Positions 34,801 to 40,800 of a stretch of DNA of 64,000 nucleotides are shown here, in pieces. The DNA is taken from NCBI RefSeq assembly GCF_003018255.1, contig NZ_CP027440.1. One strand, 5' to 3'. Position 1 is the first letter of the stretch, and each line of letters starts with the position of its first letter. Position numbers: made by a program. Origin of the DNA: Escherichia coli (GTDB lineage: Bacteria > Pseudomonadota > Gammaproteobacteria > Enterobacterales > Enterobacteriaceae).

Positions 34801-37800
34801 TAATGCAAAGTCTCTTACCTCCAGTTCTTTCAATGGGTGGTTTCCCAGGCGGGAAACCAGGTATGCAGCCATTCGCACTTTTTCTTTGTGGGTTGTAGCT
34901 GCAATGTCTCCATTTTTCAGTCGCGAATCCTGTATTTTCAGATATCGATCAACCCATGCCTTTAATCTGATACCCCGACGTTTTGTTGCTGATGGACTTT
35001 CATCAATTTTGCGCATGAAATATTCTGCTTCTGCTGCAGCTATTCGCTGATTGGCTGTTGAAGCGATTTTTTCTGCCTTACCTTTGTCTGTTCCGAGTCC
35101 GTGAAATTTTCCAGTCACAGGATTTTTATACTGGTAGTAAACTCTGCCAGTTCTGCGATCAAACTTTTCGTAAAGACCGGCTACGTCAGTGCTGTTTTTT
35201 CGTGGCCTCGGTGACATGAGTTAAAATCTCCTTCAGTGCATCATCATCGCCAGTATGAATTTCCGGCGCAATTCCCGTTTCACCAGGCCCAACAAATACT
35301 GCTCGGCGATCTATCAGCCAACGCCCACGAATTTTTTGTGGTCTTGGAACGATGTATCCTAGTTTTCCGTATTTCACCAGGGTAGTGTTTGTTATTGGGA
35401 GACTGAACCGTTTTGGTTTCCACTCATCGAGCGTTATCAGGTACTGTTCGCTCATGGCTATCACTCCGGAACGCGCCAGTTGCAGAATACCAACGACAAC
35501 TGGCGACGGTTGAACATTAAAAATCAGCCTGACTCGGGATCAGTTTTTGCCAGATAGCTGAAACGTATTTTGCCTGGTAACGCGCATCGTGCAGGGCATT
35601 ATGGCGCTCACCCTCAAATGTGATGACACTTCGAGCATCGAAATCCATCACCAGTCCCAGAGCAACCATCGTTCTTACATCGCGATCATTGGTGTAACGC
35701 CATGGGCAGGGGATCCCCTGCCGTTCATATGAACGGCGTAAAATTACGTTGTCAAAGTTGGCTCCATTTCCCCAGACCTGAACAAAAAATTCACCGGAGT
35801 TTTCGTCGATAAATTCCCGTAATTGCAACAGTGCGTCATCCAACGGGATTTCATCGGTCAGAATGGCTGATTGTGCTTCCCGTGACTGTTTCAGCCACCA
35901 CTTAATGGTGTCCCGATCGATGACTCCGCCCGCGGTTTCCAGATCGATAGTTTTGCTGAATTCTGGCCCCATCTCTCCGGTTGCCGGATCAAAAAACTTA
36001 CCGGCCAGAGCGTTTATTGGCGCATCAGGATTTTTGCCCATTGTTTCAAGGTCAATCATCAGATGGTGCCACAACCTGCTGGTGGATGTGCTTTCGTGAT
36101 GACCGTTCACCTTAATTAAGGGATTTGCTGTCTCGCCTGTTTCATTATTGCCATTGGCATGTTGATCGCCTTCGGTACACTCCTTGTTCGGGTATACGGC
36201 ACTTTCCATTTCCTCCGAATCATCTTCCTGAACTTCAGCCTGATTTTTTTCATCGAATGTTTCCTGGTATGTTGCGTCGCCCATTACCGCGCCACAGTCA
36301 GGACAGTTGCCGTCGCCGGTCTGACCGCAGGCGGTGCAGACTTTTTCCGGTTCTTGTTGCACTTCTGGTTCAGGCAGTTTCGTTTCTGGCTCGTTTTGTA
36401 ACGCATTTGGGCTGTTTTGTTCCGCTTTCTGGTCGTTTTGTTCCGATTCGTGCTGGTTCTGGTTCACAGAGTCGCGGGTTTCAATCCCCTTCACCCATTT
36501 CGGATCATTCGGGTCGCTAATCCCTTCAACAAATTCTCCGTGAGAAGCAGCCAGTAATTTATCTGCATCGACAGGATTTTTGGGGGGAATGTTTTTCCTG
36601 GCTTCATGGAGTTCTGCACGCAGTTTCTGATATTTCGCATCAACAGAATTTATCTGTGGCTGAGCATCCATCGACTGCGTGTCCTGATTATGTTCAGTTG
36701 TATCCGGTTCCACTGCTTCAGTCGTTGCCTGTTCATCTGCCATTGCGCCAGTTGGCTGCGGTTTTTCTTCATCATCCTGTTTTCCTTCTTTTGTTACACG
36801 CTGCGGCATTGGAGCAGAGGAGCGACCGCAGGCAATATCCACGATTTCTGGATCAGGGGTGGCATGGTCGGTTTCGGTCAGTACTTTGTTCAGATATTCG
36901 GTAACACGGTGGGGAGTAGCCTCGATACCAATTGGTGCTTCTTTCACGGACGCAACCACTATCGCGCGGGAATAATCCAGGTGACCAGGCATGGCGATGA
37001 ATTTGTCACGAAAAACAGAAAAGGGCGGCTTATTCTCTGAAACGATTTCTTCAATGCGTTTGGCGTGTGCCGGATGTGGATTGTAAATATCGATGTCCAT
37101 TGAACGGGCCAGAACGCCAGCGGCAACGTCACGTTCCACTGACGCATCATCGTGGACAAAACCTTCACCGCGATCGGTAAGAATTCCTCCGCCAGCATTA
37201 GCGCCGGATGGCGTGCGGCTGATGCGTAAAACACGATTTCCTTTCATCCACTCTTTTGTCAGCAGACCTCGATCGGTATAGTCAGCGTCCAGGTATGCTT
37301 CGAAAAAAGCAGTCATTAACCCCAGACTGGAATTAACGGGATTAGGGAAAACTTTGTCTGTGTCGCGTACCAGTTTGTGAAGGTCGCGAATCTCCAGCGG
37401 GTCGAGCAGCTTTGTGTTGTGGGAAATAGCCAGGGCAGTAACAGCAGGCAGTTCTTCAGCTCGTGCGATATGTAATGCCTGAAGTTCTTCCCGTGAAACG
37501 TGCGTTACCGGTTTTTCGCTGCCATGTTGCGCAAGCCAGCGAATGGGCAGTTCCTGACCGGAAATCGGCAGGAGCATATTATCCTCAATCTCAGCCATGT
37601 CTTCGCCATTGACGTTGGTATTGTCAGAGCTGGCTGGTTTGTCCTGAACTGAGGGGGAAGGCGCTATAAATATCATTGTGATGCCATCTTCCCCGCCTTT
37701 TTCATAGCGGTTGCAGAATTCAGTATCGAACACACCTTCAGGCGGCAGGTCATTAACAATGGGCAAATTCACGCGAACAGGTTTTTTGAAATCCTCTTCG

Positions 37801-40800
37801 TCAAATCCAGCATCGTCCATTGCGACAACACCCCGTGATATTGCAACCGATAATTTTTTTGCTGTGCGCCAGTAAAAACCGCCTTTAATCCCAAGGCGTT
37901 TTCTGACTTTGTCATTTTTGGCTTCGTAATACAGTGCAATTTCTTCTTTATCAGTGCTCATTGATAAACCTCATAACTATTTTAAGGTTGTACGAATCCC
38001 TGCCATTGCTGGCATGCTTAATCAACGGGTATGGCGTTAATACGGCTGGCGGGTTATCCAGCCGGTATTTCGTTATTCAGGTACTGCGATACTTTGTTTA
38101 ACGGGAGACATTCACCGGAAATTTTTTGCTCGTCTCTTGCCTGATGGCAGGATTCTTTACTGGCATAAATTCCGGTAATCACATTCTGTGGCTCACCTGT
38201 TATCAGAAAAACCGTCATCATCAGTGCAAACGCTGAACTCACTGCTGCCCTCCGAAAATGCCAAGTTCAAGAAGGGCAATTCTGGAGAGTATGGAATTAT
38301 CATTGAGAAGATAAGGCTCATATTTTCTCATCCTGATGGCGTCTTCAGTAAACTCCCGGTTACTGAGCAGAATACCAATATTAAAACACCCTTCAGACGT
38401 ATTAACGTTTGGTAGTGACGTTTCCATTATCGCGTCCTCAACAATGAATTTTGTGATGTGGTGCCTGGTGCCTCCAGGTGACGTTAACCAGTTAACAATT
38501 AACGCCGGATTGTTAGTTGATGTCTGTTACGCCAGTAAAAGACCGCTTGTTTTAACTGTTCCGCGTGCGCTTAGCCGCATTCACCGCATCACAAAATACA
38601 CTTTAAAAATGGCGGATATCCATTTCCGCCGAATCACCAGAAAAGTGATAACAGAGGTTGTTGTGGCGGTGTTGTCACTCAGGCGTATGGTCAACCTGAC
38701 AACCCGGTGCATTTTCTGGAGCAATGGAGGAAGCCCCAGCCATACTTACCGCCGCGCCATTTCGCGGATTGCCACAACCGGAAGCGCACGATCGAATTAC
38801 ATTTAACGACGACATATACAGAGAGACTAACTTCGCCGAGCGCTTTCGTGTTGTGTGCCTGCTTTTAACCACGTCAGGCGAGGTGGACCTGTTATTCCCC
38901 AACAACAAGGATCTTGTTAATCTGGATATCCCCAACAACAATAAGAGTATTGAATGTGATCGCTGAATTAACGGCAGCAATGACGGCTATTCGTGAAACC
39001 GCTCAGATTGCAAAACTAATGAACGAGGCAAAAACTCAAGCTGAAGTAAATGCGGCTATTGGTGAACTGAACTCAAAGCTTGCATCTATTCAGCACGAAT
39101 GCGTGTCTCTCGTTGAGCTGGTGAGCACTTATCAAGAAATAAATGCTTCTCTCAAAGCTAAAATTGCAGAATTTGAAAACTTTGAGGCTCAGACGGAAGG
39201 TTATATCCTTAACCAACTTGAGTCGGGAACTTTTGTGTACTCGAAGGAGGTAACCGTGAACGGCGGCAGCATAATCATGCATCTTTGTCCAAAATGTTTT
39301 GGACAAAAGATAGTATCGATACTTCAACCATTCCCGGTTAGAGAATATGAGTTTTTTCATAAAAGCAGGTGCCTCTACTGTGAAAATCAGTTTCTTATGA
39401 ATAAAAATCCGGATTATGTATCGCCTCCATCTATTGAGGAGTTGGCCAGAAAACTGAACGGCAATCTGTAGATTGTTACTGTTATGGATATCCAGATTGT
39501 TAAAGAGCATGCCGGATGCTTGCTTGTGTCCGGCGCGTGTGCACCAGTTCTCCCCGTGGAGGATTCCTTAACTACCAGACTTCATTAGTCAGAGTTTCTT
39601 GCTAACCAGCGACGCGCGCCAGCTTCAGTTTTAAACGTTTTGCTTCTGGTATACGTCATCGCGGTAAACGTGCCGTCCTGGTTGGGAAACACGCCGCATA
39701 CCAGAGATTCGTTGTTGCCAAGATTGAGCGTATCCATGTTGACCTCATTCCCCCTTAACGCCGGGGCGCGGAACTAAAAACCTGCTGCGCTGTTATACAA
39801 AGTGTTCCCGCCGTCATGTTCATACGCCTCGGGCTGGCTACTTAACCCCTGACCACTGCCGGGTAACTCGAAGTATTGCCTGGCGTTCTGTGGGATGGGG
39901 TTGGAATAAAATAAAGTTTAGAAAAATGAACTTTATGAGTCAATGTTTTTTTTATCAAAACATGACAGCAGGCAGCTGTTAAGCCATCAATATGATGGCG
40001 TACAGTAAATTAAGGGGATTAGTTAAATATCTTGTTGAATTTTAAAGCATACACCTAAAATGCGGGATATATCATCCAGCATGATTGATGGGTAGCGTGG
40101 ATTTGAGGGAACTAAGAGGATGTCAGGTCCTTCTATTTCCAATTTACGAATTACTGGTGTAGTTGTTCCTTTTGGTAATGCTAGAACAATATTGCCATGT
40201 TGTGCGGTTCGATCTGGGTCGACAAAGACCGTTGATCCATTCGGAATTGATACACTTCCGCCTGCGGCAGACATACTATCGCTCTCTAGAACTACTGCAA
40301 ATGTATTGACAGAAGTTTCACCAGCGAGCTGAACACAAGAGAGTCCTGAGGTATTTGTCATATAATCACTCCAACTTGCTGCCTGCTGAAGTGATAGTAG
40401 CGGAACCCTTTTTACCGGCGGCAAAGATAGATCACTATATTCACTTATATTTAACACACCTCCATTAAGAAGCCAGTTTTCACTTACTTTCAAGATCTTG
40501 GCGAGAGAGCTTATGTAACGAGCGGATGGAGTACCTCCACCGTTTATCCACTGACTGACAGAGCCCTTTGATGCGCCTGTAGCGATGGCAAGGTGCTTTC
40601 CCTTCAGATTTAGCGCGTTCATGCGCTGAGTGATGCGTTCAGATATTGTTTGCTTAGTCATGTTTTGATTTTAAAACACTAGAGGTTTTGTTTCTTGACT
40701 TTCTTTTGTTTTGATTATTAAACTTTGTTTGTTCAGTTTTCTGGAGTGAACTATGAAAAAATCAGAAGTTTTAGGATATTTTGGCGGTGTTGTTAAAACA

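Follow-up and report, generated by a model that had tools for sequence, protein, structure and literature searches.

The subject of this analysis is a single large gene in the leftward early (early-left) operon of a lambdoid prophage, carried on a 64-kb stretch of Escherichia coli DNA from contig NZ_CP027440.1 (the whole stretch is referred to here as the window). We conclude that its product of 814 amino acids (aa) is a RecE-family mosaic of a Rac/Qin-type lambdoid prophage, and that it probably acts as a Mg-dependent 3'-5' exonuclease that is made after induction and works on DNA ends. By sequence comparison, the protein has kept the non-catalytic three quarters of RecE and has exchanged the catalytic quarter for a DEDDh domain. 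An uninterrupted frame of 814 codons runs along the minus strand, and every motif named in the initial annotation is present, i.e., an acidic low-complexity centre, a CxxC...CxxC pair, DLET and HNALHD. The ATG is preceded by a GAGG Shine-Dalgarno sequence at 7 nt, and a 100% identical copy in NZ_CP027371 (coding sequence WP_032284903.1) is annotated as "exonuclease". The gene and its parts are as follows.

35517-37961, minus strand: whole gene from the list of open reading frames (ORFs), a RecE-N/DEDDh exonuclease mosaic of 814 aa, with its stop codon at 35517-35519.
37791-37961, minus strand: aa 1-57, a variable N-terminal head that is unlike K-12 RecE and is found also in some relatives.
36747-37790, minus strand: aa 58-405, RecE N-terminal core, mostly helical, with two subdomains modelled with confidence.
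36351-36746, minus strand: aa 406-537, acidic, Q/N/P-rich low-complexity stretches flanking a conserved helical segment.
36252-36350, minus strand: aa 538-570, CxxC-x7-CxxC zinc-ribbon-like motif (C542, C545, C553, C556).
36078-36251, minus strand: aa 571-628, acidic linker, in which RecE homology stops at aa 616, the domain-swap junction.
35520-36077, minus strand: aa 629-814, predicted DEDDh 3'-5' exonuclease domain (Rv2179c/DexA family).
Predicted catalytic codons, minus strand: D637 at 36051-36053, E639 at 36045-36047, D737 at 35751-35753, H787 at 35601-35603 and D792 at 35586-35588.

Sequence and modelling evidence together identify the C-terminal domain as a predicted DEDDh 3'-5' exonuclease with a DnaQ-like fold and its catalytic residues in place. 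A domain search over the full length of the protein, which had been suggested with the initial annotation, returned Pfam Exonuc_VIII (PF06630) at aa 56-189 (E = 1.7e-33) and the Rv2179c-like family (PF16473) at aa 632-804, where all of the model was covered (positions 1-177 of 177, E = 3.3e-60). A single-sequence phmmer search against PDB sequences returned T4 DexA (8kel_A, E = 1e-6), and the pentad D637, E639, D737, H787 and D792 aligned with D7, E9, D119, H186 and D191 of that enzyme. A PDB profile search in which DexA scored 9e-39 was set aside as circular, its alignment (A2) having included a DexA fragment. In an alignment of 38 sequences D637, E639, D737 and H787 were invariant and D792 was conserved in at least 90%, and in one of 78 sequences each of the five residues was kept in 74-78. 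These residues lie in the motifs DLET at 637, NFD (with D737) and HNALHD at 787-792; a second DLET, at 673, is non-catalytic. Structure prediction, likewise suggested at the outset, gave a confident DnaQ-like fold: the AlphaFold2 model of aa 617-814 reached a predicted local distance difference test score of 93.9 and a predicted template modelling (TM) score of 0.88. Foldseek against the PDB placed DexA first (E = 3e-11, TM-score 0.72-0.74), followed by RNase T, DnaQ and oligoribonuclease. Pfam, alignments, model and Foldseek thus agree with the 3'-5' exonuclease fold first read from the motifs, and the concern that the DEDDh residues might fail to align as catalytic is answered by the aligned and conserved pentad.

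Most of the remaining sequence belongs to RecE. By BLASTP, aa 58-616 showed 73% identity to residues 50-591 of RecE of the K-12 lineage (MC4100), with nothing aligned beyond. This stretch takes in the acidic linker and the zinc-ribbon-like motif, which is kept in RecE, where it aligned to CNACGQTGGDNCPDCG; Pfam zinc-ribbon matches to the CxxC motif were weak (E = 0.3-3). The NCBIfam RecE equivalog (NF007259) gave 1067.5 bits, under its cut-off of 1269 bits, with aa 1-616 lying on profile positions 1-602 of 877. A match to phrog_32949 covers aa 1-37, and the RecE alignment begins only at aa 58. The acidity of the centre is pronounced, with 26 D/E versus 5 K/R at aa 501-600 and 21 D/E at aa 351-450. 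In a 2023 review, residues 564-866 are given as the RecE nuclease domain, and the N-terminal part is described as "of unknown function" (PMC11611040); given that the RecE match ends at 591, the swap sits at a domain boundary. The RecE kinship of the first ~616 residues had gone unnoticed in the initial annotation, which saw no recognisable Red or N gene in this operon. Red and N are indeed absent, but RecE-like sequence is recognisable, and the protein takes the place that RecE has in an early-left operon of Rac/Qin type. The idea that it might turn out to be a known RecE/RecT-type fusion holds only for the N-terminal region, the RecE nuclease domain and RecT both being absent.

With RecE (Exo VIII) of the K-12 Rac prophage, the 814-aa protein shares the zinc-ribbon motif, the acidic linker and a position close to where the early-left operon ends, ahead of xis-int. 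RecE, however, has a C-terminal PD-(D/E)XK 5'-3' nuclease (residues ~564/606-866) and a downstream recT, whereas the 814-aa protein has a 3'-5' DEDDh domain instead and no recT. A second relative is the YdfE-type sibling, whose intact, 823-aa form in O157:H7 lies in an operon of the same order (ydfA..dicB-ydfD-gene-int). This sibling agrees with the 814-aa protein in its middle region and, at 87-95% identity, in its DEDDh domain, but its first ~440 residues differ and bear no similarity to the RecE-type N-terminus. The pseudogene ydfE of K-12 Qin corresponds to the first 256 residues of the 823-aa sibling, cut by IS2; K-12 YdfE was rejected as a match to the N-terminus of the 814-aa protein, to which it shows no similarity. 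From ~aa 465 onward, sequence is common to the RecE, YdfE-type and 814-aa architectures. At the DNA level, RecE-type matches covered nt 339-1847 of the query and YdfE-type matches nt 1393-2445, and their overlap makes the shared middle (aa 465-616) a plausible crossover zone.

Substitution rates were compared among the parts of the gene by pairwise Nei-Gojobori estimates against sibling copies. The ratio of nonsynonymous to synonymous substitution rates (dN/dS) was 0.10-0.12 for the exonuclease domain, 0.24-0.31 for the RecE-type core and 0.37-0.52 for the linker-rich middle (aa 406-628). Low dN/dS, the conserved pentad and intact frames together argue for an exonuclease domain under purifying selection, and so for a predicted functional enzyme and not a decayed RecE. 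The same data bear on whether the gene could be what is left of a defunct RecET recombination module. In the O157 Sakai prophages the Exo VIII-type system was scored intact only in Sp10, with Exo VIII-type genes outside Sp10 scored as disrupted (Asadulghani et al., 2009; PMC2669165), and neither RecT nor the RecE nuclease domain is present here. The frame is nevertheless full at 814 codons, the protein has acquired an entire catalytic domain of foreign origin besides what it lost, and the same architecture recurs among distant relatives as well as in the records of sequenced phages. With the pentad conserved and dN/dS at ~0.1, we regard a RecET remnant as very improbable, since the data on selection and conservation largely refute this explanation.

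The nearest solved structure is that of T4 DexA (PDB 8KEL/8KEN), an early phage 3'-5' DNase with the same DEDDh pentad. DexA differs in being a stand-alone protein of 227 aa with extra loops, and it is ~23-30% identical to the DEDDh domain of the 814-aa protein. This relationship counts against a role as an exoribonuclease that would shorten phage or host RNAs from their 3' ends on induction, e.g., transcripts of the dicB-type operon, since DexA is the closest relative of solved structure both by sequence and by fold and is a DNase. The domain also stands in for a DNase on a scaffold that is otherwise tied to DNA-recombination functions. In favour of RNA, the namesake of PF16473 is the 3'-5' exoribonuclease Rv2179c of Mycobacterium tuberculosis, NCBI often labels the 814-aa protein "3'-5' exoribonuclease", and the fold also resembles those of RNase T, oligoribonuclease and REXO2 well. 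Rv2179c is itself a stand-alone bacterial enzyme whose likeness to the domain consists in the match to the family model, and PDB sequence searches did not return it. DEDDh enzymes often take both DNA and RNA, so the Pfam family name does not settle the substrate. On balance, a dedicated RNA-trimming function appears distinctly doubtful.

Genes of this kind are widespread. The exact 814-aa protein was found on 856 NCBI contigs under the names "exonuclease", "3'-5' exoribonuclease" or, wrongly, "exodeoxyribonuclease VIII". The whole gene was present at ≥80% coverage in 1212 of 5426 complete E. coli genomes. DNA of the exonuclease domain was found in 4043 of these genomes (~75%), spread over 8057 sites with a maximum of seven in one genome, and DNA of the K-12-type RecE nuclease in 1730; both genome counts are lower bounds, as megablast sees only DNA of about ≥80% identity. 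Copies of the exonuclease domain occur in cryptic prophages too, and the gene is also found in phage records such as mEp460, Tritos, HannyBb and vB_EcoS-640R1, with an intact frame in, e.g., mEp460, Tritos and vB_EcoS-640R1, as well as in several Stx2a phages. It is thus one of the commonest E. coli prophage genes, already annotated, and no new kind of element. In the literature on PF16473/DUF5051 and on RecE-DEDDh prophage proteins we found no study or function of this protein.

Such retention, in 75% of E. coli genomes with up to seven copies and cryptic prophages included, would also fit the main rival explanation, in which the protein is a prophage defence or exclusion nuclease that would break down the nucleic acid of superinfecting phages and so profit the lysogen. 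Its targets would be either modified DNA, as for the DexA homologue EcD, or the genomes of RNA phages, as for TONDO proteins. E. coli EcD ("HREX") was reported to digest T4 DNA and to protect cells (PMC12153337, 2025). Using the primers of that study we recovered an EcD-like protein of 189 aa, which has Ala at position 78, in agreement with the paper, and is 37% identical to the DEDDh domain of the 814-aa protein over 183 aa (E = 4e-33). In addition, prophage DEDDh exonucleases with auxiliary domains (ISG20-like "TONDO") act against MS2 and Qbeta (PMC13344964). TONDO proteins, however, are of a different DEDDh subfamily, and PADLOC-DB 2.0 gave nothing beyond a 22-residue match at E = 0.035, which is not meaningful. 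The gene also lies within a repressor-controlled early-left operon and not in the position of a lysogeny-expressed moron.

A residue implicated in recognition of modified DNA differs. W152 of DexA was implicated in recognition of 5-hydroxymethylcytosine and was reported to be needed for activity on T4 DNA (PMC12153337). Its equivalent is T757 in the 814-aa protein, whereas sibling copies from E. coli have C or Y at this position and the EcD-like protein has W. Two further marks of HREX are an acidic residue at the D169 position of DexA and loss of the tetramer residue D90. In the 814-aa protein, D90 corresponds to D709 and is retained, and D169 corresponds to D773 in the HMMER alignment but falls in another column with MAFFT. 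EcD belongs to the same Pfam family and is likewise encoded in a temperate-phage early operon; it is, however, stand-alone, belongs to a prophage of P2-like type and has retained the Trp. The 814-aa protein was not filed as an HREX member, as the Trp equivalent to W152 is absent. Taken together, these points make a defence function for the 814-aa protein unlikely, though it deserves the most serious consideration among the alternatives.

The surroundings of the EcD-like gene were alike at the loci at which it was inspected (L021, L022, L025, L028, L035, L036 and L039:6001-6570), the gene lying among the early lytic genes of a P2-like prophage in the order int, repressor, cox, small ORFs, EcD-like gene, Dam-type methylase and replication gene A. 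By its sequence context the EcD-like gene belongs to the early genes of a phage and not to the host. This placement weakens the reading of EcD as a bacterial defence in PMC12153337.

The operon in which the 814-aa gene stands was delimited by the following features.

34099-35217, minus strand: integrase by annotation, 36% identical to lambda Int (tblastn).
35186-35464, minus strand: excisionase, directly downstream of the 814-aa gene (phrog_629; annotated excisionase).
38054-38242, minus strand: DUF1482/YdfD-like protein of 62 aa, upstream in the same operon (phrog_1092).
38239-38427, minus strand: homologue of the cell-division inhibitor DicB (phrog_1251; annotated dicB at the matching locus).
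39585-39737, minus strand: DUF1391 (YdfA/YdaF-like) gene, first of the leftward operon (phrog_751).
39915-39958, minus strand: candidate leftward early promoter by the repressor gene, two overlapping sigma-70-like matches from a consensus scan.
40023-40661, minus strand: CI/LexA-type repressor bounding the early-left region (phrog_4 and others), 29% identical to lambda CI.

The product of 38054-38242 shows 47% identity to K-12 YdfD and is DUF1482 by annotation at an identical locus, and the DUF1391 gene shows 80% identity to Rac YdaF (tblastn). The whole window was queried by tblastn with the proteins of lambda int..cro, Rac racR..intR and 933W int..cI. The sole matches were the integrase, the repressor, the YdaF/DUF1391 gene and residues 50-591 of RecE; no match to Exo, Bet, Gam, N, Kil, CIII, RecT or the RecE C-terminus was found. 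On the small ORFs between the 814-aa gene and the repressor, PHROGs identified only DicB, the DUF1482/YdfD-like and DUF1391/YdfA-like proteins and families of unknown function. Among the rightward early genes it identified replication proteins, RusA, Q and a methyltransferase, and no annealase. Both approaches therefore agree with the initial annotation that no Exo/Bet/Gam-like or N-like ORF lies between xis and the immunity region, and the comparison with 933W and lambda proposed there revealed no homologue of Exo, Bet, Gam or N.

The 814-aa gene occupies the stretch of the leftward early operon that holds the Red genes (Exo, Bet, Gam) in lambda and 933W, but it differs from Red in showing no sequence similarity, in having the opposite exonuclease polarity, and in coming without an annealase and without Gam. 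The arrangement is not peculiar to this prophage. In every locus examined, i.e., at the potC, yccA and rspB sites in E. coli and in three divergent relatives from other sources, the DEDDh-type gene is the last of the leftward operon, directly before xis/int, in an annealase-free vicinity; in PD-(D/E)XK forms, recT is the next gene. Because its polarity is opposite to that of Exo and RecE and no annealase is encoded, the 814-aa protein cannot be a self-sufficient recombinase of the RecET or Red type.

The early lytic position and the lack of a Gam-like RecBCD inhibitor in the prophage could also be accommodated by a counter-defence or host-takeover nuclease, one that removes retron DNA or linear oligonucleotide messengers or blunts host recombination via 3' tails. 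Single-stranded-DNA exonucleases of 3'-5' polarity (ExoI/SbcB) suppress recombination intermediates, which counts in favour of the last of these. This explanation is nevertheless speculation, and we consider it improbable; similarity of the 814-aa protein to known anti-defence proteins was not found.

How a prophage-encoded 3'-5' exonuclease made on induction would work can be sketched from its relatives. In DEDDh enzymes, four acidic residues hold two Mg2+ ions and a histidine serves as the general base that activates water, nucleotides being removed singly from the 3' end. In the 814-aa protein, D637, E639, D737 and D792 would bind the metal ions, and H787 would be the general base, with stepwise removal at a free 3' end. 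The RecE-type N-terminal region may deliver the nuclease to DNA ends or regulate it there, and the enzyme would then trim or degrade 3' DNA ends in lytic DNA metabolism, by analogy with T4 DexA. Gene order and the precedent of the K-12 Qin operon suggest that it would be expressed from the leftward early promoter after induction, along with dicB and the ydfD-like gene; in Qin, the dicB promoter can read through ydfD and ydfE (PMC11430063).

Several observations weigh against this assignment. For the 814-aa protein and its fused relatives alike, DNA as substrate and the lytic role are what we infer from relatives and gene position. The Pfam family is named for an exoribonuclease, RNase T was the second-best structural match, and a stand-alone homologue, EcD, at 37% identity, is reported to be active in defence against T4. 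No solved-structure relative was found for the N-terminal region, so targeting to DNA ends lacks structural support. The two candidate promoter matches score 9/12 each, and the number of such matches in the region is not above shuffled expectation. Finally, to our knowledge, a 3'-5' exonuclease without an annealase fits no known phage recombination module.

The wider family was surveyed in a search of 1.84 billion representative proteins, which yielded 10428 matches, the long ones being sorted by domain probes. The RecE-type N-terminal core was found to carry one of three C-terminal types.

Core with PD-(D/E)XK domain: e.g., P0127, P0143, P0146 and P0211.
Core with DEDDh domain: P0121, P0129, P0133-P0136, P0148 and others.
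Core with a third, unassigned C-terminal domain: P0137 and P0171 (locus L042:5001-7445; outside the window).

The DEDDh fusion is kept even where the N-terminal parts share only 25-40% identity. Pfam, NCBIfam, PDB phmmer and PDB profile searches returned nothing for the third domain (~260 aa). It also occurs stand-alone, as hypothetical proteins of 240-275 aa. At locus L042 the next gene is Sipho_Gp157. Two conserved motifs of the domain, SINGxY..ATExFGPxGIGWG and KKSLTDAxKKALSxLGFxADIFMG, are colinear with the core of the RAD52 annealase. An hhalign comparison with human RAD52 gave E = 0.0077 and a probability of 5%; the third domain may be a Rad52-like annealase, which we offer as a lead only.

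These three forms raise a broader, tentative idea, that the RecE N-terminus is a general platform which prophages couple to interchangeable DNA-end effectors, and that the DEDDh form is a distinct, selected version and not a broken RecE. The effectors might comprise the PD-(D/E)XK 5'-3' nuclease together with RecT, the possible Rad52-like annealase and the 3'-5' DEDDh exonuclease. We consider this possible, with rather more doubt than confidence. If it is true, the DEDDh form would have a role of its own, e.g., in end trimming, inter-phage conflict or counter-defence, and the natural domain-swap series would open the function of the RecE N-terminus to direct testing.

The assignment also has practical consequences. 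DEDDh-type genes often carry the label "exodeoxyribonuclease VIII" or are taken for a recombination system of RecET type, though they have neither the RecE nuclease nor RecT; given that both are absent, Shiga toxin (Stx) phages and other lambdoid carriers should not be assumed to encode their own homologous recombination. A strongly conserved predicted 3'-5' exonuclease fused to a RecE N-terminus and present in ~75% of complete E. coli genomes is a cheap and well-defined experimental target. The finding further touches a recent proposal in which DexA-like enzymes serve bacteria as defences.

Some further observations were made on the prophage. Inside the leftward operon, an opposite-strand ORF of 185 aa (38914-39471, plus strand) has a CxxC...CxxC pair and matches phrog_1244, a family of unknown function. 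It holds the position of sieB in lambda and Rac, without similarity to SieB, and could be a moron expressed in lysogeny. Between dicB and the next gene upstream, the non-coding gap in which Qin has dicF contains a sub-threshold match to Rfam STnc100 (38395-38612, minus strand; 33 bits versus a gathering threshold of 47, E = 7e-5), and no DicF was detected in this gap at the Rfam gathering threshold.

NZ_CP027371 (locus L001), with its identical exonuclease gene, differs in its immunity region, where relBE and a repressor of another kind are found; compared with 38428-41000 of the window, this difference places a mosaic boundary just upstream of the dicB-exonuclease block. The usual upstream neighbour of potCD is potAB. 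Here, the integrase end of the prophage adjoins the start of potC (33138-34099), so that potCD is parted from its upstream sequence, and this potC-side insertion site was met again in other strains. In the late region, 50501-51460 (plus strand) and its neighbours showed 94-96% identity to Stx2a-converting phages, including stx2A, a DNA methylase and Q. By sequence, this prophage joins a late region of Stx2a type to an early-left operon of Rac/Qin type, not of 933W type. In the rightward early region, a sok antitoxin RNA (45467-45641, plus strand; Rfam RF01794, 113 bits) implies the presence of a hok/sok-type toxin-antitoxin locus.

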